Part shown: piece after piece, positions 3,752 through 49,809 of the stretch
Layout: every line of letters begins with the position of its first letter
How positions within the stretch are numbered: position 1 is the stretch's first letter
Position numbers and translations under genes: made by a program
Notes under the pieces: model-generated
Database searches by the model: none
What the model was told of the DNA's origin: nothing
The model's input: the letters and a program-made list of their open reading frames with translations, nothing else
Source: Botryllus schlosseri
Taxonomy: Eukaryota
DNA length: 64,000 bases
Direction: 5' to 3'
Assembly: GCA_051294905.1 (NCBI GenBank)
Contig: CM119372.1
Span: 23,872,001-23,936,000 of the forward strand

Positions 3752-3901
3752 TAAGGAAGATAACTAGCTTTTGGACCCGTTTAGTACGGGAAAGGACGAG
3801 ATATTACTGGATATACTCGATATATACTGAATATACTTGATATTGGATATACTGGATAGCTGGATATACGACGTAGCAATTCAGGAAATATCCTATTAAC
3901 A

Positions 3902-12995: not shown

Positions 12996-13208
12996 CTCTA
13001 GTACCATACCAAACAGTTTGATACTCTACACATTTTGGGTTGATTTCAATTGTCGAAGGTCCACCGCGATCCTTCAAACAATTTTTGAAATTTTACCGGT
13101 CCGTAATCTGCACTAGTTGACATCAAAACGGGGAAAGGAGTTGTGCTGTTGATGATACTCTTGATGACATGAAATATCTTACTGTCCTACCGAACCTCTT
13201 TATTTCAG

Positions 13209-13360
13209 AGAAGTGCCACCTCAAACGTACAAATCTAATTTTCATGTTGGACGGGTCATCGAGTATATCAAAGATAGAATTCGCAACTGTGAAAGATGTG
13301 TTGGTGGCCACGTTAGACGTGTTTCAAACCATCGGACCAATCGGCGTTCAGATCGGTGTG
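13209..13360 (+). CDS. vWA exon 1 (KCHLKRTNLIFMLDGSSSISKIEF...GVQIGV)
   Basis: tttcag acceptor, GTAAGC donor, DxSxS MIDAS motif. Confidence 0.9.
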
Positions 13361-16300
13361 GTAAGCCTAAACTTTTTTTTACGATAACATAAAATCTATG
13401 GTTGATAAAAACTGGGTTAGTCATATCAGTATTTTGGACCGATACCAATATCTCCGATATAGCCAATTTTCCCAATAAATGGATATTTTCTGACGATATT
13501 ATTATGTGACATATTTCGAGTGGAACTTTCGATAAGTGACAGTAATTTTGAAATGCATCCTATATCACCGTCATTCATTTACTAAAATACTACACCAGAG
13601 TAAAAAATAGTATTTCCAACTCAAATACGGTCGTTGAGGAAACATACCTGTACCTCAGAGCCAAGGCTCATCTGTGATGCCTCATTTAGTGCAATTTACG
13701 ACAGTGCAGCGATGAAATATTTTATATTCATTTAGACTTGAGCGCGTATTAACAAGCAATTAGTAGTAATTTTGTACTTCAATGACTAGCCTACTTATAA
13801 ATTATGGGCGTGTTCAGAATCGCCGTGATGCTTTCCTCTATTATTATTTTTCAGTCTCGCAGTTGAATTCCGTTTCGTAGAATTACATCACTCCTCTCAC
13901 ACCTACCAATCTACATATATCGCGCTGATATGCAGACTAAACGAGTTGGTGCTTTATTTATAGATACAATTCAGCAGTACAGTTCAACTTGAAGTCGACA
14001 TGCATCACGCAAACAAAGAGACAATGAAAATTACAATCAGGAATATTCAGAAGCTTAACGAAGGTATGTAATATGGGGTCTAGTCTACTTTCTTATCCAA
14101 CACAACGTGACCATCACCAATCAGAATTCCCCATGAACATGACTAAATTGATGGCGTTTATTATTGAATTAGGGTTAAGTTATCATATGAGCATTCTTTA
14201 CCCTTACTCCCAACCCTAATCCTACGACACCCCAACCTTAATTATGATTACCAACCCCCAACTTTAAACATCATCCCAACCCTGCTCCATCTTAACCTTT
14301 CAATACCCTAACAAGCCTAACTACCCCAACCCTAAGTTAAAGATACCCTAACCCTGAATTTTACCATACCCAAACCCAGCCCTAATATTATGCGACCCCA
14401 ACTGTGGTGCCCTGCTCTTGCTAACCTTGCAGGGGTAGTGTCACCTTGTATATACTGTTATCGCTGCTGTATTGTGACTTGTATATAATGTAAGTAGTGT
14501 TGATGTCTCTTCCCCTAAAAAAAGGGAGATGTGGTGTTATGATATGCTTGATTGATCATGCGATGGGTTTCCGGATTGTTTTGATGACAGACAAGCATGT
14601 GGTCTGTGGAGAATACACTTCGAATCCGACTTGTAAAAGTATCTGTCTAAGTAGACAGCTAGAAGCTTAGTGATAATACTACACCAACCTAACCCCCACC
14701 CCAACCATAATTTTATGATACCTGTATGTCTTCGCATTTTGTTGCTTGTGATTTCGAACAAATTCCTTGCCATACTAACCAGTTGACTGCGCAGTGACGG
14801 CTTCAGATATTATGCAGCGGTGATTGCTAATTAATACTAAACCAATGCATTCAAACTCTCCATATCCTCTAATACAGGGGTTCACAACCAAGGGGTCGCA
14901 ACCGCAATGAAGTCGTCTGCCTATTCAAAAAAGGTCGCGGAGACTAAAATTAAATACCAGCGACTATTACAAGAATGCCAATTAATTGGGTGATATCGGT
15001 GGCTTATTACTGAAAATGTCTGTTCGATTTTCATAGAAAGCGCCACCTATCAACTTGAGGTTGATGTCTTGACAGTTGACACCACTATGTAGATCAGGGG
15101 CAGGCAACTTCTCCAGTGGGCGGGCTAGATAAGGGGAAATGAAGTACTTGGCGGGTAGGATTCCTGATTCGATGCCTTAATTGCGTATTATCCACCTATA
15201 CAAAGAATATATCGTATTCCATGTAAACTTTAAGTTTAAAGCATAGAGACCAACACAGTATTCAATGAATCTATAAACGTAATGTACTTCAATGCGGTTC
15301 AATTCAACGAGACATCTGTGGTCGATGTCGATCAAAGTTCTCAACGAGTTCTTTGAACTCTGGCTGCATGTCGGACGTAGAAACCTTTAGTAAAGACTGC
15401 ACGTGAACGACAGTTAGATTGCAACGCATCTTTGTCTTGTTAATGTTCATGGTCGAAAATGTTTCTCCCAAATGTATGAAGACCCGAACAGAACAAGTAG
15501 TTTCATGACCATCTGTCTCATGTTGGCAAACTTTGATTAATATAGTGACCAGGGTTGTAATCAAGTCACAAGGCTCCGAGTCACAAGTCAATCTCACTTT
15601 TATAGATCTGACTCGAGTCAAGTCGAGTCTTCAATTCACCACCGAGTCAAGTCCGAGTCCAAGTCATCGAGCAGCGGTTCGAGTCCGAGTCATGGTGTTA
15701 TGACTCGATTCCGAGTCCGAGTCCAAGTCATTGTGTTGACTGCTCACTTTCCAGTTAAGGTCTTGTTAAACCCACTTTTATAACTCTCTTTGGTGATATC
15801 GAATGGTTCGCATTTATATTACACTAATTTTCCTCACATTTAGCCGTTTCTGGTCGCATTTTCAAGTACCAGTACTAATAGACGAAAGTCCAATAAGGTG
15901 GTTACTTTACTATTCTTCAAAATTGCAATGAAATATCGGTCTTTGCCGTCTGAGTCTCGAGTCATATGACTTGAGTCGAGTCGAGTCATTTCAGTATTTG
16001 GAGAAAATGACTTGACTCGAGTCATTACAACCCTGATAGTGACGCCAAGTAATAATCGCTATTACTTGTGTCCGGACCGCCTCTAATTGTTACACTAATC
16101 AGAATAAATTTCACTTTGATTTATTTTTCCGACTTGAGGCAAGGCATGTGACTGAATGCAAAACGGAATTCTTGTCAAGAACGGGAAACAAAGAATCAAA
16201 ATCACAAAGAAAACAGAACTTTATCCTCATCTTGTGAGACCGGAAACTGTCAGCGAGCCCCTCAAAACCGGTTGGGGGCCTGGCAGGGTTGTAACCAAGT

Positions 16301-19300
16301 CACAACGTTTCGAGTCACAAGTCAATCCCACTTTTACAGTTTTGACACGAGTCAAGTGGAGTCATTTTCAATTAACCACCGAGTCAAGTCCGAGTCCAAG
16401 TCACGGAGTAGAGTGCCGAGTCCGAGTCATATAGCTTTGACTCGAGTTCGAGTCCTAGTCATTGTATTGACTGTTCAGTTCCGAGTTAATGTCATGTGAA
16501 ACCACCTTTCTCAAACCTGCTCGGTGATATCGACTGCTGCGCATTCATAATATACTAATTTTACCCAGTTTTGTCAGTTTCAGCTATCATTTTCAAGTAA
16601 CGGTATTGATTTATGAAATAATAGTAGTGTGATAACTTTACTTTTCTTCGAAATTACAATGAAATGACTTTTTTGGTAGACCCAGTCTCGAGTGATATGA
16701 CTTGGTCCTAGTCATGCGCAATGACTCGAGTACAAGTCGAGTCAATACAGAAATTGACCTGAGTCGAGTCATTTTTCATTTCCAAGAAAATGACTCGAGT
16801 CAAGTCGAGTCACCAAAAAATCGCGATTCGAGTCTGACTCAAGTCTAGTCATGACTCGAGTCATTACAACCCTGGGGCCTGGTCCGGCCCGTGGGCCGTA
16901 TGTTACCCACCCCTCGTGTAGATTAAAGTGTCGGTTGCATAGAAATCAATATGACAAGAAGTTCTCCTTCCGGGACCACTAGAAGTAACCGGTAGTGTTA
17001 TGTGTTAACAGCCGAGGCCGAATAACTTGTGGATTCTCATCAGTAATAAGCGTGACGCTGAATTCCATTTAGCACTACTTGAATACATCGATTGGATAGG
17101 GATAGAAATCATTTCAAACGACCTATACACGGTGCTATAGTCTTGGTAGGCGGGTGTTGACAAGTTCATAATCATTATGTTCCATTACTGCGCACATAGT
17201 CGCCAGCTTCTCACATAGGCCGTGAGTTTGGGCGAAGGAGCAGTGCCGACCAATATTCTAGTAATCAACAAGCCATATTCTGAGCGCGGTCGCGGAACGT
17301 TTTCAAATCGAGAATTTGGGGTCGCCACAATAAAAAGGTTGGGAGGCTCCAATCGAATGCTATGTGCTCAGTAACATTACAAACCTATAGGTTTTCGCAT
17401 TGACACTTGCGATATCAAGGTACAAATACCGGAGCCGCTCTCGATTTTGTCGCCACGCAGGCGTTCACAGAAGAGAAAGGGGCGAGGATGGATGCTGACG
17501 TGGAAAAGGTTTTGGTTGTTATCACCGATGGAATCGCAGATGACAATATCACGATCTCTCAACAAAAGGTCAAGGTAAATTCACGACGGAAATTCGAAGT
17601 ACCATCACAATGCAAAGGTCTGCGCTGGGACGCGTACACTGTAGAATGTACAATGTACATTATACATCTAATGCACAGTTGCACATTTTGCACAAGGGTG
17701 AAGAATTTGAAAAAGTTTGATAATTCCATTTCCCTAATTTGATCGAAGTAGTAGATCGATGATGGAAAACTCGATGGCAGGATCATTGCTGGCGAAGAGA
17801 TCATGTCATTCAATTCGAATCTATGTTGTTTTAAGAGCCTGGGAGTAGAGGTTTTCGTGATTGCTATCGGAAACTTTACATTGTTCGACTTCGCAAAACT
17901 GCTTGCATCAAAGCCTACGCGTGAACATGTTACAGTCCTCCACGATTATAAAGGAATTGAAAGTGCTCTTCTTTCAATGCAGAAGAAATTATGTGGTAAG
18001 ATGTTTCCGTACCTTAGGTTTGAAAACTGTGACTCACAAATGCATTTTTCGCAGCTACAATTGCAACAGAGCTGCGGATCCGCAGCAATTTGATGTTATT
18101 ATTTGTTATTCTGGGTGTTTCGATGATAAATCGATATTCATGGTTATATTATACTAGGCGGATATTCTTATTGATGCTTATCGTTCACAGCTCGACCGAC
18201 TTTCATTTTGAGCCGTAGGCTTTTGAGAAACTCAGATCATGTAGTAATGTGTAGTAATTCACAATTATCTAGTTGCATATCAAGCTTATAAAATTTCTCA
18301 CAGAAAAGTAGAAAAGTCATGTTAAGTAGCTAATAACAACGGAGGTCTTTTGCACCACAAGCTGATTCGTTTCATCAACAACACGAGACAATTGATTAAT
18401 TTGGCATGGGATTTTAGGATATTTACAATATTAAGCTAATTTTCAATTATTATGAGAATAATCAGCAGTAGTATAACGATTGTGGTTATGGTGTATAGGG
18501 ATTTTCCTATACTTTTGCATGGTGACAAATATCACTTATGGCAACTTCCAAGCTCGGTATATACTTCTGGGTGTATACCCGCTCCAATGCTAAACCTCAA
18601 TAGGGGAACCCACGATATAGGTCTCATGCTACACTATAGCTATTAGCTATAGCGTATATACACTGTTCCATGTCAAACTCTTATGGTAGACTCCAGTAGA
18701 GGGACCGAGGGTATACGTCCTGAGCTCTACTAAATTGTGTTGTGTATGCTACATAAGTAAAATTCATATGTCCGACTCCTGAGGAGGGACCTATAGATTG
18801 CAAAGGTTCTTAACCCTTTTGAACTCGCAGACCGGAAAAAAAAACTGAAAAACAAATGTTGATTACGATAAATGTATGCGACTCTATTTACTTATAGGAA
18901 ACTTCATTTGATGTTGCTTTTTTATATTAGATATTTATACGAGGTTCCCTCAAAATTTCCACGAGGCGAAGATCGAGAAGACCTGTTAAAGAGCACTAAC
19001 TTCATTGTCATTGTTGGGTATCCTTTTGAAGCAGAGGTCTCAAACTCAAATGTGCTAGCGGGCCAATTTCCTATTTTTTGATGACGCCGCGTGCCGCAGC
19101 ATCAGTAATAGGGATATTCAATGTATAATTTCCAAGTAGGCCTTAAATGACGGGACCTTGCAAACAGGCATTCCACAAACATCGTTGAAATGTTATTTAC
19201 TAACTTGTACTATTTACCTTGACACGGACAAAATCCCATTTTCAAATATTGCAGCTATTGCACCTTTGACGTGCCACGATTTTATGTATAATATTTTAAA

Positions 19301-22300
19301 ATTTCCTGAAGATTGATCTAATATCAGAGCATTTGAGCGGTGTAGCCTAATCCTGGTTTTGATATAGTCGTGATAAGTAGGCTATTGTTACTGTCATTGC
19401 CAAAGTCAAATTAAATAAGCGTTAGATTGTGGCTTCTATTACTATTCGAACATATCAATAACCACTGAAACATAATAATTATTGAGCCATGGTAATAGCA
19501 TTGCGTTTTAACCTCTTTTAGCGACCGCACCCCTTGTGCTTCCAATAAGATTTCTCGTAGCCCCTGTCCATTTTCAACACAATTTCTGATGGAACCGATA
19601 TTAAAATCAGAAAGCCCATTCACATAAAATCGCGCGTGGCGCGAAGACTATTCGGCAGTTGAATAAATTGGCCAAGAAAATATTCCCCAGCCTATAGGCC
19701 TAATTCCACGATGCATCTCGTACTCCCTGATGTGGTGCTTCGTTTCGTACCCCGATGCGGTCTACTGACTCTGGTTAAAAAAAAACTGTAATAGAAATGT
19801 CCAATCGCCGAAGAATCATTGGTGTTACAGCTGTGGTGCGTACCACGACCTTGCTCGCCACCGATAATAACATGGGTAAAGAGAACAAACAACACCCAGC
19901 ATGTAACCAACTTATACGTCACGGGGGTCACAGAATGCCAATGGTAGCCATACTGACATGATTAGAAAACTATATACCCTACGCAACGCAAGCCACGACC
20001 TTTTGATATATTACTATTCCCCATGACAGTTTCATAGATTGTTGCGTCCGTAGGATTACCAAGTCACCGTTGCGAGTCGCAAGTCCTTCTCTGATTTTAC
20101 CGTTTAACCCGACTTAACTCGAGTCATTTTTATTTAATCACCTAGTCAATCTGAAATCGGGTAATTTTACGAAAGGCTGCACTAAACCAAATCACAATCT
20201 TCAGTCTCGAATCATCAACGGGTCATGTTTTATGATCGTGAACTAGAAATGTGACGTTATAGCTGATCTTCTACCGCATGGTAGCTTTAAAAAGTGATAT
20301 GATACTGAAGTTTGTTGAGATTTCAGTGATTTTTATAGTAGTTTTAGGGTAAACTTCAAGTTCTTATATCTAAAAAAAGATATACGACACTTGGATATAT
20401 TGTTGAATACTTGAAATTCCAAAATGCCGTCGCGGGCCGCACAAAATGTTCTCGCGGGCCACGTGTTTGCGACTTCTGTTTTAATGTAATTCAACTTTGC
20501 TCTATGCTATATAGCCTATATTATACTGCCAAAGGTCGGAATGTAGCGAAGTTCGTACAAAAGTCAACGTAGCTTTCACATGTAACTTGTACGAAACAAT
20601 TTCAGGTGACTTTTAAATACTTCCCTACAACACTTGCACCATCGGACGTACTCCCAAAGTAGAAAATAAACTCCATATTACGAATCTATGCAGATGCAGA
20701 TACTACGTTCCAAACTTCTAAATCAAAATCAAAATTTGCTTTCTCATTTCTATAATTAATGGCCAAGCGTCCATCTCCTTGCATTCGGTACAATTCTAAT
20801 TTATTTGGTGAACCAGCGTGAAACTTGACGCGGACCCTGAAATATTGTTATGCTTGAGTGATTGGAGTGAAAGGTAATGAACTTTAAACTGAGCTACATA
20901 CTGGAGTCATACACCATAGTAATCATAAATTTTCATATGGATGATAGAATAGATCAATTTATACAATAAAACAACAACAAAAAATTTTAATGTCAAAATA
21001 ATTAATTTTAACACCATTTCAAATCTGCTTAAAAATAATCCTTCACTTTCACGGTTGAGTGAGCAGAAAAGCTTGCTTTTATCATACGATAACTTGAAAA
21101 ATAATTTGATACTTACATATATACACAATGTTTTCAGACAATTTTCAGCCAAATCTATAATTGGATGGAGATCAAATCTATTTGTGGTTGATCAGACATG
21201 AAAGTACCCCATAATATAGATCTAAATATAGTCTCAGTAACACGTACTCGAAGTTATGGTGGTATAACTAAAGTTTCTCATGTTTTTGTGGCATAAGAAA
21301 ACACAATACGGCAATTATTTCTTAAGGACAATTTTTGATACATACAGTAATTGTAATAATCATATATGCGTATTAATTACAATTAATCACGATAGCGCAG
21401 GTCACGTTCAACTCCGGGCGCACAATGGTGCATACTAGCCTTACGTTCGGATTTCAGGTTAATACTGCAAAGTTAAGCGAAGAAAATGTTGGTGAGAAGT
21501 AACGTCATTGCGATGTCAAACACTAAAACCTTCCCACGAATTACCCACCTCAGTCGGAATCACGTAGGAAGAAGGTCAATGAGTTTAAATCTTCCCTATA
21601 AGCCGAACAGGAACTATATGCACAACTTTCAGCAAGAAAGCCATTTTCATTTTACCATGGAATATTGCCTGGTCAATACATTGTTTTGGCTTTGAAGGAA
21701 GTGCTTCCCGCTGGTTCGACGTCATATCAGCCTAATTTCAATCACCTTGTTCCCATATGGAGACTCACAGTATCACCACACGAGAGTGTGCATTATTTGA
21801 TAGCCTGTACATCAGTGGTGTCAAACTCAAATTGCGTCGCGGGCCGGATTCAAGCCTTCAAATCGCCCGCGGGCCGGACCAGTCAAGTGATTCTGTTATG
21901 TTGTGCTCTAGCTTTCTACTTGAATACTTTATTGTCGAGCATATATGGATATATAATACACGGGTCATAGGGGTTGTATTCCAGCAAGTCGCAACACAAC
22001 AATAGGATTGGCAAAAATAAGACGATTGTCCGGTTGAATACAGTTATGAACCGATAAAAGAGTGGCGTTAACTACGATATAAGTTGGCATATTTCTATGC
22101 TCCCTCTGCTGTGGTCGTAGTCCAGCGTTAGCTCAGCGTACATGCTGTGAGAAAGTCTAGATCAGTGGTTCCCAACCTTTTTCGGCTCATCGCCCCCTTT
22201 TCAAGCTTCACACCGATCATCGCCCTCGAAATGTTGTGAACCGAATAACGAGCATACAAACTGTAATGACCGGTTGGTTGACTAAAAAAAAACTCGATGT

Positions 22301-40300: not shown

Positions 40301-43300
40301 GTTATTTCCTAATTGCGAATATAGTTAGACTCAATTCTGTGAATAATATGTATTTATAATTTTCAGAAGGGGGCTCAAATACTGAATGCAAGAAATCTAG
40401 TGACAATGAATCATGCGAAGTACCGAGAAAAATTTCAAGTCAAATAAATCCGCTATGAAATATTCTACTTTATGGTCATATACGAAGATCTGCGATAAAT
40501 GTGGCTGGCACCTGGATACGTCAATGCGTCAGAAATGTTGTTTTAGTCATCATCTAATTTCGCAGTCATGCTAATCAAATTTTGGTTGGCCTTGCAATTT
40601 TACCTGATGTCATAAATAATTTCGAGAATTACCTCGCAGGCCACACCTAGCCTTCTCGTGTGCCAAATTTGGCCTGTGTGCCACGGGCTGGTCGCACCTG
40701 ATCTCTATGGTTATTAATAGGGATGGTGTGAACGTGTGGTTCACGTTCGCGTTCTGTGTGTGAACCTCGGAAATTTGGAGGTTCGCGTTCACAACAGAAC
40801 CTTGGTAGGTTCTGCACTGTGAACTTTTTTCATATATTACAATTTTCACTTCATTATGATATCTTTGGTTCGAATTTTTTGCATTTTAACTGCGGGTCAC
40901 TCTATGTATAGAAAAATCAACACAAAGCGAGCATGCACCTTGACAATCCTAAAAATTTTACTTGCTTCGTTACAAAAGTTTGCTCGAAATATCCAGCTTT
41001 CCGTTTGTGAATATTTAGTGACTCTCTGCTGTGAACTTAACCCGCAATCACACAACATCAAGGGCAAAATACACTTCATGTAGTCAGCGAATGATGCTTA
41101 TTCAACCAATCAATGAGATTGATATCGTTTTTTGATCTAACAAACCTAGCAGGCGTACGGGTTCAATCTTGACTTCATATGTTAACTGTATCATTGAAAC
41201 CAAATCCGTGCGATTGAGGTATTGGCTACAGCTGTATAACTTGTGGGGTAGTCTAATATCGGTAGCAAAGTATGGAAACCTGTTTTACACTCTGCTCAAT
41301 ATCAATGCAGCAACACTCTGACGCCGAATACATTGTCCGGTATGGCCAAGACCGTTAAGGCGTAAGCTTATATTCCCTGGATAAGTCCTCGTCGAAATTG
41401 TTGGCAAAGCGACGGATAATATTGATTTTATGGGAGTATTGTATCATCTGATTGCCTATAGGTTGATACATTTAGCGACCTAAAACGCCAATATGTAGGC
41501 TACTTCAGGATTGTGGCATTATGTGGCCCGAGTCGTCGCTGGGTATCGTGCACATTAATATAGGCTATCACTTCATTGAAAGATAGGGTTGGAATTAGCA
41601 ATATGACGTCACGTTACGTCATGAGGTTCACGTTCGCGTTCACACAGAACCTTTCAAAAAGGTTCGCGTTCACACGAACCTGAACCTTTCAGAGGTTCAC
41701 ACCATCCCTAGTTATTAATAACAGTGATTGGTGGTACATAAAAATTCTATTGAAAATTCTTTGAAAGCAAATGTTTTCATGATACAGAAGTTGGAGTCGG
41801 AGTCGGAGTCGAAGTCAGGGCCATTCTCACAAACTCCGACTCCGACTCCAGTCAGTATTTTCCCCACGACTCCGACTCCAGCTATTATAGTTTTCACGAC
41901 TCCGACTCCGACTCCGACTCCATCAAGCGAAAATTACCCCGACTCCGACTCCGACTCCACCGACTCCGACTCCACCGACTCCGACTCCACAGCCCTGGTT
42001 CTGAAGCTAAACCACAAGCAGAATCAGCAATTCTATGAACCGCTCGCTGCTCACATATTCAAATTTCCATCCTGCTCTAAGAATCGTCACAGCCGACTTT
42101 GATCACTAATTTTAACACATTGGTTATTGAGGACTGTCAGCTCATAAATCTCGGTTATGCTTCTGATGCGCGTGTGTTGTCATCAAATCAATATTTGAAT
42201 TGTTATAAATATATGTATTATCTTAATGTCATCAGTTAGGCTACTTGTTATAATAGTATACTATATACATAATCTGAACAAGACACACACAATGTACAAT
42301 GCGATTTTATGAACAGATAGGAGGATGCCGAACGACCAGTTGCGGTTGTAGTTTCGGTCTCTTAAACTGGCATCCACCTCGGCCTAATGCCCGATGTCAC
42401 AGTTCCTTTTTCGATGTCTGTCTCTATTCCGCGGCTCTTTCTTGTGAGTGCGCCCTTTCGTCGGTTCTCTTTCCGGACTTTTTTGTCGCCGTAAGAATAG
42501 CTATGTGTGGGAAGAGGGGCCCAGAATGGCCTCCAAAGCTGAATCGAGCCCGGGTCGCCTGAGTGGTAGGCGCTTATCGTCACCACCACTACGCTATCTC
42601 CTCAACTAAAAGGTAGCGTATTGGCTAATGCATTCGCATGTTGAATGCGGCCCTCGAGCTAAAAAGTTTGCCCACACATGAACTAGATTGTATGTCTCAC
42701 TCGGTGGCAAGAAAGGATAGCACTCGTTTATGAAGTAATTATGGTTTCAGAGCGCGTATAATTTTCGTAGTCGAGAAAACCGACTTTCGCATCTCCACTT
42801 AACTCATAATATCAATATTCGATCCAGATTTTAACACCCGAAACATTATGAACAGCCGTATAGTCGTAGCGTATTTTTATTATACAGGTATGCGATGGTA
42901 TCCAGGATTGCAAATCTGGTTCCGATGAATGCCAACGTGGATGCATTAGAAGTGCATTTTCTGACGAAGATAATTTTATAACGGACAAGAGAATCTTTGC
43001 TATTGCTTGGATAATCAGTGAGTTGTTATTACGAAGGCTCATTTCGGAAAACGATAGATTTGTGTGATTTTTGCAACGCTCTTTCCTCGTCCATAACCAC
43101 AATTTGAAACAAATATGTTGTTCCCTATTAGATGGGGGCTGGCTAAATCATCAATTGTTAGTAAACGAAATAAGAACGACTTCCTCCAGCGGTTTTGTTT
43201 TCAGACGACGCCCACTTCTACTTAACATTTTTTCAGCAAAACCACATACTTTTAACACTTTGGATTATCTGAAGTAGAATGTAGTTTGGGTATAAGTTTG

Positions 43301-46300
43301 CATCACTTTTACCAATGCAATTGTCATACCAACCGGACGAAAGAGCCGCATTTATCCTGGTAACTGGATTGCACCTGGATTGCACCACAATAGCGTGATA
43401 TCAAAGCAATGTTCTAGAACTGGAATAGGTTATCGCTGAATTGGAAATAGTATCTCTTGAAGGCAAAAATCAATCTTTGTGAAATAAGACTCATCAACAG
43501 CATCCTATCATAAATAAAGTTATGATAAGCTTCTTGTGGAACTTATGCGCGATATTGTGAAGCTGAAGTATATCACAGGATAAGACCACGTATTATTGCA
43601 ACATTAAGTCATGCTCTGTAACAGTTGGGGATCCAACACACACACCTATCGGTATATCTATAGCCATATAGCCACTTTGAATTATTCCATACTCGCATTC
43701 ATTCTGCTCTCATTATCTTGTGGATATCAGGTATTGCGGCAACCGTAGGATGTACCACAGTAATCGTACTAACGTTCCGTGCAATGCGGAAGAGGAAGAC
43801 ATTGCGAAGCAGGCAAAGTGTTTCTGGCCATACGACGCTCATAAACATCATGTTATTAAGCTTAGCGGTGTCTGACCTTCTTGTCGGGGTAAGAAGCCGT
43901 TCGTGATTGCTGATTTTTATCCAGTCATTTGTGAATTGTTAATAAGCAGGTCTACACTCTGGTGATATGTATAAAGGCATCTAATCTGGATGTGCGTTAC
44001 TGTCAAGTTGATCGCGAATGGCGTAGTAGCACTACATGCTCTACACTTGGAGTGATAATGGTTATTGGATCAGAGCAATCAGTTTTAACAATGCTTTTGA
44101 TAGCAATTTATAGATTGCGTGCTGTAGTGAGGTGAGCATCATATTTGATCACCATAAAATCTGTTGTGGATCAATTCTACATTTCCGAATAGACTGCAGT
44201 ATACTTGGTATCTTTTGCCTAGGTTTAGAAGGATGTGTCCTCCTTTTTCAGGAAATCGAAAATGCCCTCCGATGACGGCTAAATGTCCTCCTTTTTGTAA
44301 ATTCGTCCTCCTTTATAGTTTTGACAGCCAGGCTAATGGACAGGCTGAAGTAAAAAATGCCATAAATGACGCAAAATATGTAGCCTAATGCGGACGTCCG
44401 AGCGGGTCATTCGGGAGTTAGACTGGAAAAATAACTTGTTTTTAGTTGACATAACATGATTTCCAGTACAAATTTCAGAACCAGCAGTTTTCTAGTCCCC
44501 TGAACTGACTTTTATGATTTGTGAAAAGCGTCATCCTTACCGGATTCCAAGGTATGGTAACTAGACAGCTCCCTTAAAATGCGCAGTGCTGAAACGGTCT
44601 CGGCGCACAGAAAATCTAAGCTGCGCACAAAAAATCTGAAGTGATGACTTTTTTTAGTCGTTGCAAAATGCGCACTGTTCTCCAAGGTATCGCGCAAGCG
44701 CGCAGACTCGTGAAAAATTAGACGGAACATTGCCAAGGACAAATAGTTCTCGCTGAAGTCTGAAACCGAGGTACAAGTGCGGCACGTAATGGTAAATATT
44801 GCGCACTGTGAAGAGATGATAATTTGCAATGACGTGGGCCTCATTTCAATAGCGCAATCTTTTTCTGGGGATGGCGAAATAACATGGTTTAAAAAAGTTA
44901 TCAATAAATAATAATTCGAAGTTAATCTGCGAGAAACTAACGAATAATATTCTCCGCGTGGCATGAACATTGCATAAGATTTACTGTACAATCACATGCC
45001 GTGAATTTTCGAAGTCATCGCTTCCATCAGGCAAATCTGATCACGTATGGTGAGATAGGAGAATATGCAAGTACAAGCACCAATATTATTGAAAAAATCC
45101 ATCCCCTTGCAAACGTTGATCGGGATATGCTTCAGCTGCGCACTGTGGGGCGTTGAATTACATCAGCTTCTCAGCAGCACAAATTTTGATTTTATTCGAT
45201 TTGTTTGAACGGGAATGTTCTGTCGATAAGGTCATACGCTAATATTGTTCTTGCTTCAGTCAGACTTGAATAATCGTATCATTATATATAACTGTATGTC
45301 TTGATAGTAGGTATGCCTACGTCGATCGCATGTATTGATTTGAAGTGCGTTCTCGTGCCAGTCGTGCGACTACTAGTAATCACCAATAGTAGTCACCAAT
45401 CACGATGTACGTACACGGAGTGATTGTGACGTCACATATTGTCCACAAAATTACGATTCGCCGTCTATAGTACTTGCGGTTACACGCGTCCGTTTGTGTC
45501 GCTGCAAGTGTTTTGGCTAGCTGCTTGCCTGTGTGGCCAACGTTGAGTGAATACTCGCTAATTCTGCTTGTCACCGTTTATACTGATCGCTTTTAATAAT
45601 GGCAAAACGAACGGGTAGTTTCTCATGCTCATCCCTTCACCAAGCCAAATTAACAAAGAAGTGCGAGCCGTTTAACATGGAATGGTTGTCGGAGCATGTG
45701 AAAACGGAAGACAAAAGTAGGTACGCCCGAAGACTTTAATTATTATTTAGGGGTCCTATACCTTTTCCAACACACCTGACTTGATCAGCGCTTCCGGTAA
45801 ATCTGATCACGTGAGCAGAGAGAGCATAAAAATTGATTGCAATATGCCGACTCAATCATGAATTATATAAATTTTTCGCGCCTCGTGCGTTCAGGCAACA
45901 CACACACCAAACGGACAACCAATCTAGACGATAAGCAGCGGCAAAAAGCGCATTTTTCTTGGAGGAAGAGTATCCAATCACCAAGATATTTGGAAACGTT
46001 GAATCGCAAAGTCACTGACGGCTTTTTCCAGTGAATTTTACAAATACATCCGTTTTCAATTACCGTCAACTAACTTTTATGATTTGGTAAAAGTGTCCCC
46101 CCTTCCAGATTCCAAAATATGGTAGCCCTAGTCGACACCGATAGTTGATGACTGGAAGTTTACTCGTAATTTTGCTCCGCTTCGCGAATCAATCCATATT
46201 TCTGAAACGTTTAGTCAAGTTGAGTCACACGAAAAAGTTGACTCGAGTCTGACTCTAATTATCTCAAAACTGCATTACACGTCATGTGTTGTTTTCTTTA

Positions 46301-49300
46301 CCAGAAGTTATTATTATTGATATAATTAATATCATATTTATAGGCATTTTTATATACTTTATTCACAGTAAAACTGGTAAATACACACATAATCCGGGGA
46401 GCAACCTGTCCCAAAGGAACATGGAGAGATTGGAGTAATTTCTTAAAATTTCAGTGATACAGTCAATTTGTTATTCCTATGCATGAAGAGCTCAGATTAC
46501 AGAATTCCGGTAGATGAAGAATTGGCAAGTGTTGTAGAGCAAAGGTAAAGATAATTGAAAATGAAGAATCAAAATTACAGAAATTATGCTGTGATTTATG
46601 CGCACAAGTGTAATTTTAGTCCAGTGGTGCATCAAGGCCTTCCGAAGAATATGCACTGTGCCCAATAACGTGATTTCTTCGATCATGTCGAATCGAACGT
46701 TACCCGGAATCTGTTGGATATGTCTCATGAGTTTTTTGGTTACGACCGCTGTAGCGTCAATGACTATCGGTACAATGTTTACTTTGCATCGCCACATTTT
46801 CTCACTTTCCATTTTGAGGTCTGCGTATTTCGATTGTTTTTCTGATTCCTGTTGTAGCATGATTTGAACAGCTGGGACGGCCAGTTCAATGAATAAGCAT
46901 TCCCTTTTCGTTTCAGTTTGATTATCATATCTGGGCGGTTGCTCCTGATTTCGCGGTCAGTTATAACTGGTACATCCCAAAAAATTTTTACTCGGTCGTT
47001 TTCTGTCACTGGTGCTGGGCTGTATTCATACCAATTTTTTGTCGAAGTTGTTATGTCAAAATGTTTGCATAATTCAAAAATGTAGTGACCAATCCTATTG
47101 TGTCTCCATGTGTATTTGGTAGCTGTATTATTAATAATAGAGATAAAAACAGTGAATTGAGTGGCGCTCATCAAGTAAGTGTATTTTCATGGTACGTTAC
47201 GTACGCACGCAAACCGGCGCCTAGAATGTTGTTGCATCGGGAGTAGCCTATCGCTGTGACTTTCTGTGAATAATCTAATCTTTTCCACCCTAACAGACCA
47301 TTTGCTCGTCCCGAACTACGCCGTGCGATAGTAGCAATTCTGGGGGCATGGGTGATTTCGATATTGCTTGCAGTTATTCCTGTGATTCCGAGTATGGAAG
47401 ATACTTTCAAGTCCAGTGTAGGGTAAGTATCACGGAGTTCATGTAACTCCATTCCATTATTTTTTTATTTTTTAAATATGACAACAGTTTGGATTCAAGA
47501 TACCGTGAGATTTTGTAATCTCTGTCATTCAAGTGTATATGTTCAACCTCGACGCACGTTAGTCTGAATTCAATCATGTCTTGATCAAAGTCTCTGCTGA
47601 AATGTTGGGCTTTAAAATAACTAATTGTTATATCCAGTTTCAGTGCGAACGATATCTTCAAGGTGGTAGCAATTAAAGAAGTTCCATATACGATCAACTG
47701 GCTTAATCTGATGCACAATGCCACATCTCGCACGGAACACTACGGGTAACGCATATATTTTATATGGGACTGTAACAGCATCAATATAGTAATCGGAGGC
47801 GTTTCTCAATACAGAACGACGAACTGGAAATATCTGAAGAACCTTATTTCCGAGATGAATCCTAACATCACCGTAATTTACGAATTTGGATATTATGCAA
47901 GTCATTCTGTGTGTCTTCCAGCATTTTTCCCTGAGCCTAAAGAGAGCAAAGCTTGGGGATATTCGACTGGGATTCTACTCATCAATTTCTTTGCATTTGT
48001 TTGCATGCTTGCCATCTACGTACTGTTGTACAGGTATTGTGAACTTTGTATCGTACTGTCGTCTAGGTACATTGTACATTGTACAATGTACATGTGCATA
48101 AGCTGCGACATATTTTTTCAATAAATCATAATATCTTTGAGTAGTAAATGTAATAGTGATACTAAAGTTGGAGAATCGATATCTAGCAGTATTTGGATCA
48201 AGTCATTATACCTTTCAGTCGTAATACGTCACTTCGAGTGAATGGGGAATCTAATCAAGTCATGTCAAAATTTATCTTCAGAATGCTTTGCAAAGGTCGA
48301 CTTGAAAATTGACTTCCATCCAATGTTTCCTCTAATTTTTGACGAGTGTGCGCACACTCATCTACTTACTGCGCAGACCCATGGACAACAGTGCGTAACG
48401 ACTAAAAAATGTCATCACTTCGAATTTTTTGTGCGCAACTTAGATTTTCTGCACGCAGAGACCGTGTCAGCACTGCGCGTTTGCGCACGTGCGCAGCTTA
48501 AAGGGAACATTGCTCCCATCAATCAATTCATGTTTCTCGAGTCTTTGTCATGCCAAGGCAATATAGCGTAGGCCAAATGATTTTGAGTAAAGTTAAGTCT
48601 TGCCATGACTCGGGTCATCCCAATATGGTATTTAGTGAAGATAAATTGGTATTATCCGACCCTAATGGATTTTGTATTGTATTGTGGACCACATCAAGGT
48701 GGCTGCATGGATATGAACTCACTACTTTATATACCTGACAAAACATAGTTTGTAAATGTTACACTTTGAGGCAGGGGTACACCGATGTCCGGTGACTGGC
48801 AAGACATTGAATATTTAAACGAATCATGAATTCGGAGAGACACTCTGCCATGTCTCTGCCGATATCACAGATTTTGCGGTATCGTATGTTTGCTCAGTAT
48901 CAAATTGGAAGATTTATGTATATCAGTTAGTATATTTGTGTTCTAACGCCGTATAAAAGTTCTAGTTTACAGGGAACAATACACAACCCAAAGCGTGATA
49001 ATGACTCGTTCAGCCATGTTGACTATTTCTCTTTGTGTCCAATCCTCAGCTAAGTTGTAATTCACATATAGACATGCTACGAAGAATAAAGGGAAACTCG
49101 TACGGATGTGTTCGGAAGAAAAGAAAATCACCAAACATAACGAGAATTTGCAACGCAAACTAACAAGGATACTTATCTCTGACTTCCTTTGCTGGATGCC
49201 GATATGCATTATGGGATTGTTGAATCTTTCCGGTGGGTTTTCGATATCAAATGAGACTAATTTATATTACTATCGGTTTCACCTCGGTCGACTCGCTTCC

Positions 49301-49809
49301 ATCTGGTCTCATGCAGAGATGAGTTCTGCTTCTCAGTATGTTTAACATTTCACTCCGACTGGGAGTTTGATTGTCTTCTGTGTGTGTAATATTATTTCTA
49401 CTTTAGCCTGGTTAACGATTGACTCTCGTCCCTCTCAAAATCTCGTCGATTGATGGATACTGTATAAGTTACCTTACTGTGTGTAGGCCGAACCAGACTT
49501 GATGACTAACGAGTACGTTTGGTGCAACGTTGCCCATAGGTATTATTGACATATATGTGTACATAATATCATGTCTGTTTCATTCCAGGCGTGCGTATCC
49601 CAAAAGACGCTTATCTGCCATCCGGACTACTAATAGTCCCCATAAACAGTGCTCTCAACCCGTTGCTGTACTCCGATCTACCCGAAATCATCTGTGGAAG
49701 GATGAAAATTATCAAATCATCGATATCGTCATCGATAAGCACGACGCAATCAAAACATATCTCTCTGCATGATAAAACCACCTCGCCAGATTCAAATGTA
49801 TTAATGTAG
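13209..49809 (+). CDS. Multi-exon gene: vWA domain + six LDLa modules + rhodopsin-class 7TM (RXFP/GRL101-like, no LRR seen). The 5' end is unresolved, with candidate upstream exons at 7-105 and 7066-7221
   Basis: Phase-compatible GT-AG exon chain: 13209-13360, 13964-14063, 17420-17574, 17836-17995, (28694-28773, 29098-29185), 30540-30701, 30759-30852, 31706-31755, 36311-36382, 36449-36572, 37608-37715, 37810-37873, 37954-38040, 42888-43017, 43731-43888, 43950-44131, 47297-47422, 47638-47745, 47815-48033, 49072-49232, 49589-49809 (TAG). Motifs: LDGSSS, ITDG, CDGxxDCxxxSDE, LAVSD, SDFLCWMP, PINSALNPLLY. Joining the vWA part to the LDLa-7TM part is inferred from strand, phase and absence of a stop. 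Confidence 0.75.
13964..14063 (+). CDS. vWA exon 2 (IQFSSTVQLEVDMHHANKETMKITIRNIQKLNEG)
   Basis: ttatag acceptor, GTATGT donor, typical vWA IQFSS strand, phase 0/1. Confidence 0.88.
15550..16035. mobile_element. hAT MITE (TIR CAGGGTTGTAAT) with GAGTC subterminal repeats
   Basis: TSD ATAGTGAC. Confidence 0.9.
16284..16874. mobile_element. hAT MITE, same family as 15550-16035
   Basis: TIR CAGGGTTGTAA and TSD GGGCCTGG. Confidence 0.9.
17420..17574 (+). CDS. vWA exon 3 (GTNTGAALDF...GAR...KVLVVITDG)
   Basis: MIDAS Thr and ITDG Asp motifs, GTAAAT donor, phase 1/0. Confidence 0.9.
17836..17995 (+). CDS. vWA exon 4 (SLGVEVFVIAIG...LASKP...HV...KKLC)
   Basis: vWA C-terminal pattern, GTAAGA donor, phase 0/1, no stop. 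Confidence 0.9.
19032..20478. mobile_element. Old non-autonomous hAT element
   Basis: Degenerate termini CAGAGGTCTCAAAC...GTTTGCGACTTCTG with GCGGGCC subterminal motifs. Confidence 0.6.
21813..23023. mobile_element. Non-autonomous hAT element containing the MITE at 22163-22517
   Basis: Outer TSD CTGTACAT and inner TSD GTCTAGAT. Confidence 0.85.
23862..24982 (+). mobile_element. 5'-truncated RTE-clade LINE (reverse transcriptase pseudogene)
   Basis: GVLQGDTLAPFLF and LAYADD motifs. One in-frame TAA at 24723, then the frame continues (AHDRPRW) to 24905. (TA)n tail. Confidence 0.9.
25888..26250 (-). mobile_element. tRNA-derived SINE, copy 2
   Basis: Same head and body as 9812-10140. Inserted next to the hAT transposase remnant. 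Confidence 0.8.
27161..27865. repeat. Diverged tandem duplication (~390-bp period) in a probable DNA-transposon terminus
   Basis: ACAGCACTTCGTCAGCCCCCC at about 27171 and 27559, followed by similar sequence. Confidence 0.6.
28694..28773 (+). CDS. Probable linker exon (EIHRIRSATKRVVKEYAIAHTDICDIE)
   Basis: Strong ttttcttcag acceptor and GTAACT donor. Only the phase-1 frame, which is the one required, is open. Confidence 0.5.
29098..29185 (+). CDS. Possible linker exon (MHIGRMLTLLNPQELCNESCDSLFLMSDD)
   Basis: Phase 0/1 bridges 28773 to 30540. An alternative boundary (29108-29143) is also possible. Confidence 0.3.
30540..30701 (+). CDS. LDLa module 1 exon (FQC...SICDGAFNCPDLSDECLC)
   Basis: tttcag acceptor, GTAAAA donor, LDLa consensus. 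Confidence 0.9.
30759..30852 (+). CDS. LDLa module 2, first exon (YCLSANGTYTAIDAAIICQNE)
   Basis: Preceded by a 57-nt intron, phase 1/2. Confidence 0.8.
31706..31755 (+). CDS. LDLa module 2, second exon (TDCINNEDAASYKSGC)
   Basis: ttacag acceptor and GTAAGC donor. Completes the ICQNETDCINNED module. Confidence 0.8.
32060..35106 (+). mobile_element. ~3 kb non-autonomous hAT element with (GGAGTC)n subterminal repeats, copy A
   Basis: TIR CAGGGCTGTGGAGTCGG and TSD CTTGCAGA. Confidence 0.92.
33575..34553. mobile_element. hAT MITE nested in copy A (GACTT/GAGTC repeats)
   Basis: TIR CAGTGTTGGGAT and TSD TAATCAGG. The site is empty in copy B (about 39485). Confidence 0.92.
36311..36382 (+). CDS. 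LDLa module 3, first exon (STSTNDLPTKSKDFICFNGTSTI)
   Basis: ttttcag acceptor, GTAAAA donor, phase 1/1. Confidence 0.8.
36449..36572 (+). CDS. LDLa module 3, second exon (ATACDGIPECSNILSEECEC...)
   Basis: ttgcag acceptor, GTGACT donor, CDG motif. Confidence 0.85.
37608..37715 (+). CDS. LDLa module 4 exon (EMCDGLQFCENFADERGC)
   Basis: cttgtag acceptor, GTAAGA donor, phase 2/2. Confidence 0.88.
37810..37873 (+). CDS. LDLa module 5, first exon (FYCSEDPLPNIPSHYRCNRRD)
   Basis: ttttcag acceptor, GTACGT donor, phase 2/0. Confidence 0.85.
37954..38040 (+). CDS. LDLa module 5/6 exon (DCQNKADERNCSLFRCNDTGLLEYIHEDA)
   Basis: tttag acceptor, GTGAGA donor, DCxxxxDExxC motif. Confidence 0.88.
38385..38804. 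mobile_element. Truncated copy of the element at 40718-41710
   Basis: Similar to 41232-41710 including the right terminus. Confidence 0.7.
38935..41997 (-). mobile_element. ~3 kb non-autonomous hAT element, copy B, inverted relative to copy A
   Basis: Same TIR as copy A, TSD GTTCTGAA. Confidence 0.92.
40718..41710. mobile_element. hAT MITE nested in copy B (GTTCAC repeats)
   Basis: TIR TAGGGATGGTGTGAAC and TSD GTTATTAA. The site is empty in copy A (about 32330). Confidence 0.92.
42272..42602 (-). mobile_element. tRNA-derived SINE, copy 3
   Basis: Same head (GGAGATAGCGTAGTGG ... GGCTCGATTC) and body as the other two copies. Confidence 0.8.
42888..43017 (+). CDS. End of LDLa module 6, hinge and start of TM1 (VCDGIQDCKSGSDECQRGC...IFAIAWII)
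   Basis: tacag acceptor and GTGAGT donor. The LDLa module runs directly into TM1. Confidence 0.92.
43731..43888 (+). CDS. TM1-TM2 exon (IAATVGCTTVIV...SLAVSDLLVG)
   Basis: LAxxD motif of TM2, GTAAGA donor. Confidence 0.92.
43950..44131 (+). CDS. TM2-TM3 exon (VYTLVI...WRSSTTCSTLG...SEQSVLTMLLIAIYRL)
   Basis: LGR/RXFP-type WxxSxxC and SExSV motifs, GTGAGC donor. Confidence 0.92.
46620..47130 (-). mobile_element. 3' fragment of an R4-like non-LTR retrotransposon (restriction-like endonuclease domain), frameshifted
   Basis: YTWRHN, KIFWD, NRPDM, EKQSKYADL, VPIVI and LLGTVHILRKAL motifs across two frames. Confidence 0.85.
47297..47422 (+). CDS. TM4 exon (PFARPELRRAIVAILGAWVISILLAVIP)
   Basis: taacag acceptor, GTAAGT donor, conserved TM4 Trp and Pro. 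Confidence 0.92.
47638..47745 (+). CDS. Extracellular loop 2 exon (FSANDIFKVV...TEHYG)
   Basis: tccag acceptor, GTAACG donor, symmetric phase 2/2. Confidence 0.7.
47815..48033 (+). CDS. ECL2-TM5 exon (FGYYASHSVCLPAFF...ILLINFFAFVCMLAIY)
   Basis: YxxxSVCLP motif, hydrophobic TM5, GTATTG donor. Confidence 0.92.
49072..49232 (+). CDS. ICL3-TM6 exon (ILISDFLCWMPICIMG)
   Basis: LGR-type DFLCWxP motif, phase 2/1. Confidence 0.93.
49589..49809 (+). CDS. Terminal exon: TM7 (PINSALNPLLY) and Ser/Thr-rich tail
   Basis: ttccag acceptor, NPxxY motif, TAG stop at 49807-49809. Confidence 0.93.

Follow-up and report, generated by a model that had tools for sequence, protein, structure and literature searches.

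Organization of the locus

The window (the whole stretch of 64,000 nucleotides that was analysed) contains exons for a vWA domain, six LDLa-like modules and a class A 7TM, all located on the + strand and in a common ORF. In the spliced model, 22 exons (8831–49809) are joined into one ORF of 908 aa with a CDS of 2727 nt and one stop, and the splice sites are of the GT-AG type and the phases compatible throughout. Two paralogous units on the opposite strand of the same chromosome, A and B, are collinear with this model, covering 795 and 822 of the 908 residues, respectively, and form three tandem copies with the window copy. Transcript support consists of one assembled contig (record 9, 1357 nt, depth 5.6) from one run, X3, the RNA label of which is a guess.

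Exon 1 (8831–8897; 67 nt, ending in phase 1) specifies the start codon and a signal peptide. It is an ATG-initiated hydrophobic exon with a strong GT donor, and its product contains a hydrophobic 19-mer (model residues 3–21) in frame with exon 2. Counterparts of the same length and phase, encoding similar peptides, are present upstream of the vWA exons in A and B. In the window copy, exon 1 lies outside the stretch compared with reads, and the X3 contig passes the acceptor of exon 2 without being spliced there (piece 12957–13359, across 13208/13209); the use of exon 1 and its splice are therefore predicted, from these two paralogues only. The transcribed stretch 5' of exon 2 in this contig (12957–13208, +) may be an alternative first exon or a retained intron. 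Translation from an in-frame ATG at 13169 would yield an N-terminus that is short and weakly hydrophobic; a first model starting at this codon (21 exons, 899 aa) was superseded in view of the conserved signal-peptide exon. That exon also places the start of the gene upstream of 13209, the position at which the original prediction had begun it.

Exons 2–5 constitute a vWA cassette of 567 nt with phase 1 at either end. Exon 2 (13209–13360), which shows 60% identity to its counterparts in A and B, encodes the first strand of the domain and the DxSxS of the MIDAS. Exon 3 (13964–14063; 100 nt, phase 0 to 1) was fitted to the X3 contig and completes the alignment to collagen VI-type vWA domains. Exon 4 (17420–17574) contains the Thr and Asp of the MIDAS, and exon 5 (17836–17995) encodes the C-terminal part, ending without a stop on a phase-1 GT donor. 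Intron 5 harbours a fragment of a retroelement reverse transcriptase (23838–24722, +; Pfam RVT_1, 5.9e-13) and a fragment of a hAT transposase (25603–26013, −; Pfam Dimer_Tnp_hAT, 2.1e-7). It is followed by exon 6 (26911–26946), a 36-nt phase 1-1 micro-exon that represents the remnant of an LDLa module and links the vWA part to the LDLa part.

The six LDLa-like modules span model residues 224–490. Module 1 is encoded by exon 7 (30540–30701), and module 2 is split between exon 8 (30759–30852; phase 1 to 2, conserved in A and B) and exon 9 (31706–31755; 50 nt). The latter has counterparts in A and B and fits the alignment to Styela homologues; its start is the sole splice-flanked site that has the required phase and yields two or more Cys, and a length of 50 nt was chosen over 59 nt. 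The two halves of module 3 lie in exon 10 (36311–36373; conserved in A and B) and exon 11 (36449–36572; conserved in A at 70% and in B at 62%). Module 4 corresponds to exon 12 (37608–37715). The first half of module 5 is found in exon 13 (37810–37873), its second half together with the first half of module 6 in exon 14 (37954–38040), and the second half of module 6 in exon 15 (42888–43017), which passes directly from this module through a stalk into the start of TM1. The modules are divergent, mostly with four Cys against the canonical six, and carry a CDG-type second half; the most canonical acidic cluster is that of the second half of module 6. At the level of single exons, the Pfam matches to Ldl_recept_a are sub-threshold (30506–30718, E 0.019, exon 7; 42870–43064, E 0.0044, exon 15), and the best PDB matches of exon 7 alone are LDLa modules, at non-significant scores. 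The whole array is collinear with Styela proteins whose LDLa modules are called strongly by Pfam.

The 7TM part is distributed over exon 16 (43731–43888; TM1, ICL1 and TM2), exon 17 (43950–44131; ECL1 and TM3; Pfam 7tm_1, E 0.048), exon 18 (47297–47422; ICL2 and TM4; Pfam 7tm_1, E 4e-4), exon 19 (47638–47745; part of an ECL2 of ~100 aa, a long loop shared with the Styela homologue), exon 20 (47815–48033; the remainder of ECL2 and TM5; used as a search profile), exon 21 (49072–49232; ICL3 and TM6 with a CWxP-type motif) and exon 22 (49589–49809; TM7 with NPxxY, and the C-terminal tail). The two 7tm_1 matches score 13.6 and 20.3 bits (cut-off, 30.5), values that refer to single exons and not to the spliced protein. 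Six clear hydrophobic 19-mers and a weaker TM7 are present in the spliced model, and this part is collinear with Styela proteins whose 7tm_1 matches reach 1e-15 to 1e-20. The TM2 acidic residue, the DRY Arg, the CWxP-type motif and NPxxY are found in the translation, with conservation in A and B; of the DRY motif, the model keeps the Arg, and another residue replaces the acidic one. PDB sequence searches with single 7TM exons returned nothing significant, and a word-based search with the TM1–2 exon for longer proteins gave no match.

Of the 389 + strand ORFs of at least 40 aa in the window, 300 were scanned with Pfam and gave no match to any LRR family, and none of the unassigned stretches of the model has sufficient length for an LRR domain. 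GAIN/GPS and 7tm_2 were likewise absent from the Pfam scans of window ORFs. The original prediction of six LDLa modules and a 7TM downstream of the vWA domain on the same strand holds, with divergent modules and a 7TM that appears complete up to the stop codon at 49807–49809. One vWA exon (13964–14063) and three small exons of the LDLa part (31706–31755, 36311–36373 and 37810–37873) had to be added, and the link from 17995, which the prediction sought to 28694 or 30540, runs via 26911–26946 to 30540 and not by way of 28694.

The vWA domain and its splicing to the LDLa exons

Two exon ORFs of the window exceed the curated Pfam cut-off for VWA (PF00092; 23.8 bits): that at 13121–13384 (+) scores 26.8 bits over profile positions 1–44, and that at 17404–17739 (+) scores 37.9 bits over positions 75–128. 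When spliced, the four vWA exons align over the full length of the domain to single vWA domains of collagen VI chains (182–183 aa, 32% identity, E 1e-22). In PDB searches, exon 4 matched collagen VI alpha3 (7e-36) and the integrin alpha-L I domain (2e-7), and the matches of the vWA exons also include the integrin alpha-1 I domain. Five positions, which we take to be those of the MIDAS (DxSxS, T and D) according to integrin alpha-M numbering, are kept in the window copy, A and B. The donor at 17995 and its phase are also the same in both paralogues. A complete vWA domain with an intact MIDAS, ending on a phase-1 donor without a stop, had been proposed from the sequence and is confirmed by these results.

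In the X3 contig, the vWA exons are spliced to the first LDLa exon, with pieces at 12957–13359, 17417–17571, 17833–17994 and 30538–30700; the join sought between 17995 and 30540 is present in this contig and runs through the 36-nt micro-exon. Two short parts of the contig were assigned by fitting. For 98 unplaced letters, exactly one splice-flanked, stop-free candidate agreed in length, end letters and phase (13964–14063, exon 3), and the X3 depth in its bin fits; for 35 unplaced letters, exactly one fitting candidate was found in 18000–30500 (26911–26946, exon 6). Each exon tested has a single 100% locus in the assembly, and the contig is therefore not derived from a retrocopy. The contig stops near exon 11/12, short of the 7TM exons, and continuity of the transcript into these exons is predicted. 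No RNA source was listed as containing the stretch 42800–49810; runs X1–X5 share 0.14–0.20 of its words, a fraction close to the exonic one (1305 of 7011 nt) that is not taken as support for the model.

Run X1 also yielded a contig piece on exon 7 (30538–30700), and another X1 contig (17966–18257) reads through the donor at 17995 unspliced. The latter could represent pre-mRNA, DNA or a vWA-only isoform that stops ~30 codons later. In the raw RNA runs X21 and X23, of which ~6 and ~13% were read, respectively, the depth on the vWA exons was zero, from which we draw no conclusion on expression. Reads of X23 on exon 7 with a loose end at 30680 were considered as a GPCR-only transcript and rejected; their loose letters lie at 31312, and the junction 30680/31312 is a canonical intron on the minus strand, which we read as belonging to an antisense transcript.

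Tandem copies and relatives of the receptor

The phase-1 donor, the micro-exon with its splice sites and the signal-peptide exon are kept in all three copies, and the micro-exon of A and B has the same length and phase and encodes a similar peptide. Between A and B, dS is 0.49 in the vWA part, 0.50 in the LDLa part and 0.48 in the 7TM part, and the corresponding dN/dS values are 0.31, 0.16 and 0.145. Among the three copies, dS is 0.5 or saturated. Together with the dN/dS values between the window copy and B (~0.1 for vWA and 0.2 for 7TM), these comparisons indicate that all three parts of the protein, vWA, LDLa and 7TM, have been under purifying selection.

From the micro-exon to the C-terminus, the model is collinear with proteins of Styela clava. 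Residues 208–893 (in the 899-aa numbering) align with protein P0105 at 35% identity (E 3e-142), and residue 208 corresponds to internal positions of P0105 (residue 86 of 804) and P0005 (residue 395 of 1117). In P0105, the sequence aligned with the micro-exon is the beginning of the second half of an LDLa module, and where the window gene has its vWA domain, P0005 has further LDLa modules instead. A third Styela protein, P0013, is 40% identical to the model over 521 aa; its best match among solved structures is RXFP1 (7TMW, 2e-23), followed by LHCGR, TSHR, FSHR and LGR4. This supports the proposed relaxin-receptor-like nature of the 7TM. None of the 214 proteins retrieved from protein collections exceeded 51% identity to the spliced model.

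The combination of LDLa and 7tm_1 is found in 40 of 54 long relatives, all relatives having a 7TM of the 7tm_1 type. A vWA domain was found in none of the 54 long relatives and in none of a set of 90. A vWA exon profile matched 8 of 145 candidate proteins, all of them collagen VI-like and none with a 7TM, although a set of this size says little about absence. The vWA domain represents a genuine lineage-specific addition to a known family of tunicate LDLa-repeat GPCRs.

This family comprises the LDLRR-GPCRs of Ciona intestinalis and uncharacterized homologues in Styela clava, Ciona and Clavelina. In the Ciona paper (Kamesh et al. 2008; PMC2396169), these receptors are described as LDLa-repeat GPCRs without LRRs, as had been stated in the original prediction, with one to ten N-terminal LDLa modules. 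As in the window gene, tandem LDLa modules directly precede a class A 7TM similar to INSL3/relaxin receptors, without LRRs, and the group shows lineage-specific expansion in tunicates; unlike the window gene, the relatives examined lack a vWA domain. The word Willebrand does not occur in that paper, and among the papers listed in literature searches none reports a vWA domain on such a receptor.

The RXFP1 and RXFP2 receptors (LGR7/LGR8, type C LGRs) also have LDLa in the ectodomain, and RXFP1 is the best solved 7TM relative of the family. RXFPs, however, possess one canonical LDLa module and a leucine-rich-repeat hormone-binding domain, whereas the window gene lacks LRRs, combines a vWA domain with six LDLa-like modules of reduced form, and has an ECL2 of much greater length. 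Many LDLa repeats on an LGR-type 7TM are also a feature of Lymnaea GRL101 and of the GRL101-like proteins of molluscs and arthropods, and several relatives carry GRL101-like as their source name, but GRL101-type proteins contain LRRs according to their Pfam lists and lack a vWA domain.

The vWA domain itself shares its fold family and the complete MIDAS with the vWA domains of integrin alpha I, collagen VI and matrilin type, and its closest sequences are those of collagen VI chains (up to 63% identity over one exon and 32% over the whole domain) and of the integrin alpha-L and alpha-1 I domains. Those domains, however, belong either to matrix proteins or to integrin heterodimers, whose signalling uses cytoplasmic adaptors, whereas the window gene places the vWA domain and a G-protein-coupled helix bundle on one polypeptide. 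Adhesion GPCRs (class B2) similarly carry adhesion-type modules on the long N-terminus of a seven-helix receptor. GAIN/GPS and 7tm_2 appeared in none of the Pfam scans and the 7TM is of the rhodopsin type; this likeness is one of logic only and not of membership.

Gene boundaries, origin and possible function

We consider the exons to belong to one gene and not to two neighbours, because the spliced X3 contig contains both the vWA pieces and 30538–30700, the linking micro-exon is conserved with its splice sites in three units, a signal-peptide exon lies upstream of the vWA exons in the same three units, the first LDLa exon corresponds to an interior portion of the Styela homologues, and A and B have diverged equally at synonymous sites across their vWA, LDLa and 7TM parts. 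The original interpretation as one exon-shuffled receptor is thereby upheld, and a single 22-exon vWA-LDLa-7TM receptor gene at 8831–49809 (+), with the origin and mechanism proposed below, is probably the best explanation of the data as a whole.

It is unlikely, though conceivable, that this gene additionally gives rise to shorter products, i.e. a GPCR-only form from a promoter in intron 5 and a secreted vWA-only form by retention of the same intron. The X3 contig starts inside intron 1 of the paralogue-based model, so that internal starts do occur here, and the X1 contig that reads through the donor at 17995 would suit a vWA-only form; nevertheless, among the best-supported joins listed, only the micro-exon was seen joined to exon 7 from the 18–30 kb region.

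Two neighbouring genes, one for a secreted vWA protein and the other for an LDLa-GPCR, with the joined contig reflecting occasional read-through of no role at the protein level, appear very improbable. The distance of 12.5 kb between exons 5 and 7, the transposon fragments between them, the unspliced X1 contig and a Met following the acceptor of exon 7 in all three copies would be in keeping with such an arrangement. However, no conserved terminal exon is found past 17995, where the read-through sequence diverges between the copies, whereas the phase-1 donor, the 36-nt exon and the phase-1 acceptor have been kept in three copies at a dS of 0.5 or saturation. In the model, the LDLa half lacks a separate signal peptide, and the position of the Met, in an exon that matches an internal part of the Styela homologues, is occupied by Leu in these proteins; the equal dS across the three parts also argues against separate genes. 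That the window copy is a decaying duplicate without function is scarcely credible, since, despite an 11-nt gap that shifts the frame of the TM5 exon in paralogue B and the zero depth of X21 and X23 on the vWA exons, the window copy has an intact frame of 908 codons over 22 exons with canonical splice sites, is transcribed and spliced, and shows low dN/dS against B.

The product of the single gene would be a type-I-oriented class A GPCR of 908 aa with a cleavable signal peptide, followed by a vWA domain of the collagen VI/integrin I-domain type with a MIDAS, a 12-residue LDLa remnant, six LDLa-like modules and a 7TM of the RXFP/LGR type with an ECL2 of ~100 residues. Judging from the gene structure, a tunicate LDLa-repeat GPCR may have gained the vWA cassette by exon shuffling into a phase-1 intron, and the resulting unit would then have been duplicated to give three tandem copies. 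The locus would provide a clean case of phase-1 exon shuffling in which the remnant micro-exon is still present.

RXFP1/2 signalling requires the LDLa module. By analogy with integrin I and collagen VI-type vWA domains, the MIDAS-bearing vWA domain may, with the help of a divalent cation, capture an extracellular protein ligand by one of its acidic residues. By analogy with the LDLa-dependent activation of RXFP1/2, the rearrangement would be passed via the LDLa array to the helix bundle and ECL2, where G-protein signalling would start. The ligand, the cation dependence and the G-protein coupling are all predicted from these analogies, and the sensing of matrix, complement or carbohydrate put forward in the original prediction is likewise a putative role.

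Few class A GPCRs possess a large modular ectodomain (LGRs, RXFPs and GRL101), and the way in which such ectodomains switch on the helix bundle is still under study. With a vWA domain and an intact metal site ahead of an LDLa array, the receptor offers a testable model for asking if an adhesion domain that depends on cations is able to drive a bundle of the RXFP type. We tentatively suggest, as a possibility only, that the gene represents a new class of adhesion sensors that combines a MIDAS-dependent, I-domain-like site and a relaxin-receptor-type G-protein switch on one polypeptide, with the LDLa module nearest the membrane acting as a tethered activator, the receptor having arisen in one tunicate lineage and persisted as two or more intact tandem copies. 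If so, contact with matrix, tunic or a humoral protein would be read directly as a second-messenger signal. The locus also shows that far 5' exons, which here lie 12.5 kb and 4.3 kb away, can be overlooked in gene models of tunicate LDLa-GPCRs.

Domain content and spliced transcripts

The vWA, LDLa, and 7TM parts encoded on the forward strand of the window (C2 23872001-23936000 of a 495-Mb eukaryotic assembly) belong to one gene: its transcripts are spliced from the vWA to the LDLa exons, its frame is intact, it falls within a known receptor family, and it is under constraint. In the Pfam scan of the forward strand (300 of the 389 ORFs of at least 40 aa), two ORFs matched VWA above the cut-off, namely 13121-13384 (profile positions 1-44, 26.8 bits) and 17404-17739 (profile positions 75-128, 37.9 bits). 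Weak, sub-threshold matches were obtained on the same strand to Ldl_recept_a (30506-30718 and 42870-43064) and 7tm_1 (43935-44132 and 47274-47423). A further scan covered all 131 minus-strand ORFs of at least 62 aa and 19 of the 38 downstream forward-strand ORFs. Among the ORFs scanned, the interval between the vWA and LDLa parts contains a reverse-transcriptase fragment (23838-24722, plus strand) and a hAT dimerisation fragment (25603-26013, minus strand), both of which are transposon remains in intron 5, and no other domain recognisable by Pfam.

Two contig sets that are presumed to be RNA (X1 and X3) and two raw RNA runs (X21 and X23) were mapped to positions 11000-30999. One X3 contig (record 9; 1,357 nt, depth 5.6) is placed in four pieces, 12957-13359, 17417-17571, 17833-17994, and 30538-30700; a single molecule thus connects the vWA exons with the first LDLa exon, the introns having been spliced out. 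This contig also contains letters without a shown placement, 98 between the first and second pieces and 35 between the last two; when junction ambiguity is allowed for, these require two further exons, one of 100 nt that runs from phase 0 to phase 1 and has AAG at its 3' end, and one of 36 nt with phase 1 on both sides and a terminal AG. Stop-free candidates flanked by AG and GT were sought, and exactly one of each length was obtained, at 13964-14063 and 26911-26946, respectively, and the X3 depth in the bin containing the 100-nt exon agrees with the product of exon length and contig depth. Each of the tested exons is present at 100% identity in only one place in the assembly, and record 9 was therefore not copied from a processed pseudogene in the assembly. 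No reads from the vWA exons were present in the 6% and 13% of runs X21 and X23, respectively, that were read. Of the X23 reads, 23 break off at 30680 and resume at 31312, with GT..AG on the minus strand (30679-31309); this canonical junction indicates a spliced antisense transcript across receptor exon 7. No Pfam family was found in the scanned minus-strand ORFs of this region.

Gene model and signal peptide

The remaining exons were placed using conserved blocks, phases, and splice sites common to the window copy and two paralogous units, A and B. The final model contains 22 exons with GT-AG introns throughout and a CDS of 2,727 nt (908 codons, one stop). The original prediction of a vWA domain, six LDLa modules, and a 7TM region on one strand was confirmed; its borders, 13209-49809, required correction, as exon 1 of the model starts at 8831. 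The predicted protein consists of a signal peptide (residues 3-21), a vWA domain (about residues 25-211, with Cys 25 and Cys 211 at its two ends), a segment from the 36-nt micro-exon (residues 212-223), six LDLa-like modules with mostly four Cys each (residues 224-490), and hydrophobic helices at residues 513-531, 560-578, 605-623, 642-660, 762-780, and 815-833, after which comes a TM7 of weaker hydrophobicity; about 100 residues make up the second extracellular loop (ECL2). Exons 2-5 form the vWA cassette (567 nt), which is in phase 1 on both sides, as is expected for a shuffled module. Upstream of exon 1, a gag-like ORF of 376 aa with zinc knuckles (3860-4987, plus strand) represents transposon remains. 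A large inverted repeat has its arms in intron 9 (32166-35029) and intron 14 (39006-41879), with five ungapped pieces of 169-210 nt that are 90-99% complementary; the arms include microsatellite-like stretches and enclose exons 10-14, which cover LDLa-like module 3 up to the first half of module 6.

A search upstream of the vWA exons in the three units identified, in each, one ATG-initiated hydrophobic exon of 67 nt with a phase-1 end, a strong donor, and a similar peptide. In the window copy, this exon is located at 8831-8897 and is in frame with the acceptor at 13209. The gene thus carries a classical signal peptide N-terminal to its vWA domain; in the window copy itself, exon 1 is presumed to be used, since the X3 contig is unspliced from 12957 into exon 2, where either an internal start or intron retention was observed. 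Additional, shorter isoforms of the same gene are possible on the grounds that this contig begins inside intron 1 and that an X1 contig reads across the donor at 17995, and we regard their existence as rather unlikely.

Paralogous units and selection

Genome-wide, just six matches to the vWA exon were found, of which two close ones are on the minus strand of C2, at 23747772 (62%) and 23809992 (56%). The TM1-2 exon likewise has its closest pair of matches on this strand, at 23695713 (53%) and 23777684 (59%). Comparison of the 200 kb upstream of the window with all forward-strand ORFs of the window revealed two whole vWA-LDLa-7TM copies, units A and B (C2:23679000-23836000, minus strand), which lie 36-190 kb upstream in opposite orientation and are collinear with the window copy exon by exon, from the vWA domain through the LDLa modules to TM7. 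The finished model is covered by these units over 795 and 822 of its 908 residues. Relative to unit A and the window copy, 11 nt are missing from the TM5 exon of unit B (around C2:23684632-23684642), and the frame is shifted; either unit B is a pseudogene or the assembly is wrong at this point.

In Nei-Gojobori counts on ungapped exon blocks, units A and B differ by dS values of 0.49, 0.50, and 0.48 in the vWA, LDLa, and 7TM parts, with dN/dS ratios of 0.31, 0.16, and 0.145, respectively. Between the window copy and either unit, synonymous divergence has reached saturation in the vWA and LDLa parts, except in the vWA comparison with unit B (dS about 3.2, dN/dS near 0.1), and the 7TM part yields a dS near 1.1 and a dN/dS of 0.20-0.23. 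These values indicate that the three parts were duplicated together and that all are under purifying selection, which is somewhat weaker on the vWA part than on the LDLa and 7TM parts.

The original prediction had also held that the vWA and LDLa-7TM parts form a single gene rather than two. The window copy and units A and B share the phase-1 donor that closes the last vWA exon, as well as a phase-1 acceptor at the start of the first LDLa exon, and the 36-nt exon has counterparts of equal length and phase, with equivalent splice signals and similar peptides, in units A (23804162-23804127) and B (23734985-23734950). A single gene is supported by the conservation of these two splice sites and of the micro-exon, by where the signal peptide lies, and by dS values that are equal across the parts; on the same grounds, two separate genes with occasional read-through are very unlikely. 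The window copy is also very unlikely to be a dead duplicate.

The 7TM exons have from 40 (TM1-2) to 62 (TM7) matches in the assembly, and the receptor is therefore part of a large family, in which vWA exons were found nearby only in the small C2 cluster. The 7TM matches are clustered at C1 25-31.7 Mb, C16 20.2-21.1 Mb, C3 10-11.6 Mb, and C2 27.2-27.3 Mb. This LDLa-GPCR type family is a large lineage-specific expansion in this genome.

Relatives and putative function of the receptor

A TM5-exon profile built from the window copy and unit A was searched against 1.84 billion representatives (E up to 0.001) and returned 103 proteins, 54 of which (at least 400 aa) were scanned with Pfam. Ldl_recept_a and 7tm_1 were both present in 40, 7tm_1 only in 8, LDLa only in 2, and neither in 4; VWA or LRR was found in none of the 54. 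Of the longer top matches that were looked up, ten are from Styela clava, Ciona intestinalis, and Clavelina lepadiformis, and are labelled at source as uncharacterised, GRL101-like, or LRP-like. The spliced model aligns with a Styela protein, P0105, over 720 columns (35% identity, E 3e-142) that begin at the micro-exon and reach the C-terminal tail. The small exons placed by splice logic are part of this alignment, which provides independent support for the LDLa-to-7TM part. The micro-exon aligns with the beginning of the second half of a P0105 module and is thus an LDLa-module remnant. The Met that follows the exon 7 acceptor in the three local copies aligns with a Leu at an internal position of P0105.

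A search with the 7TM part of P0105 yielded 90 proteins with precomputed Pfam lists, comprising LDLa+7TM proteins (tunicates and unnamed records), LRR(+LDLa)+7TM proteins (molluscs, arthropods, and a crinoid), together with a small number that carry CUB and C-type lectin or TIR domains; PF00092 appears in none of these lists. In the mollusc relatives P0200, P0166, P0199, and P0153, the unusual partners listed are TIR; CUB, C-type lectin, LDLa, and LRR; and a tyrosine-kinase family. Domain shuffling thus seems to occur readily in this lineage of 7TM proteins. The best solved-structure match of a second Styela protein, P0013 (40% identity to the model over 521 residues), is RXFP1 (2e-23), followed by the LH, TSH, and FSH receptors and LGR4.

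The vWA part had no match among the fetched proteins other than collagen VI chains. Its exons match vertebrate collagen VI chains in the large protein collection and, among solved chains, collagen VI alpha3 and the integrin alpha-L and alpha-1 I domains. The metal-site positions (DxSxS, Thr, and Asp) are retained in all three copies.

The family of the model is the LDLRR-GPCR family described in Ciona, whose members, according to the portions available of that report (PMC2396169), have one to ten LDLa repeats, no LRR, and a relaxin-receptor-like TM region. A vWA domain on such receptors is absent from those portions and from the corresponding portions of the amphioxus GPCR survey (PMC2246102), and our literature search found no report of one. 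The receptor is a tunicate LDLa-repeat, RXFP-type GPCR that has probably gained a vWA domain.

After signal-peptide cleavage, the vWA domain would be placed at the tip of the ectodomain, as judged from the families concerned. Integrin I domains bind an acidic side chain of the ligand through their metal site, and the vWA metal site may contact a protein ligand in the same manner. RXFP1/2 signalling requires the LDLa module; by analogy, the LDLa array may relay binding to ECL2 and the helix bundle. Such an arrangement would be relevant to GPCR evolution and to the mechanism of ectodomain-driven activation. The membrane-proximal LDLa-like module has the most complete acidic cluster of the array.
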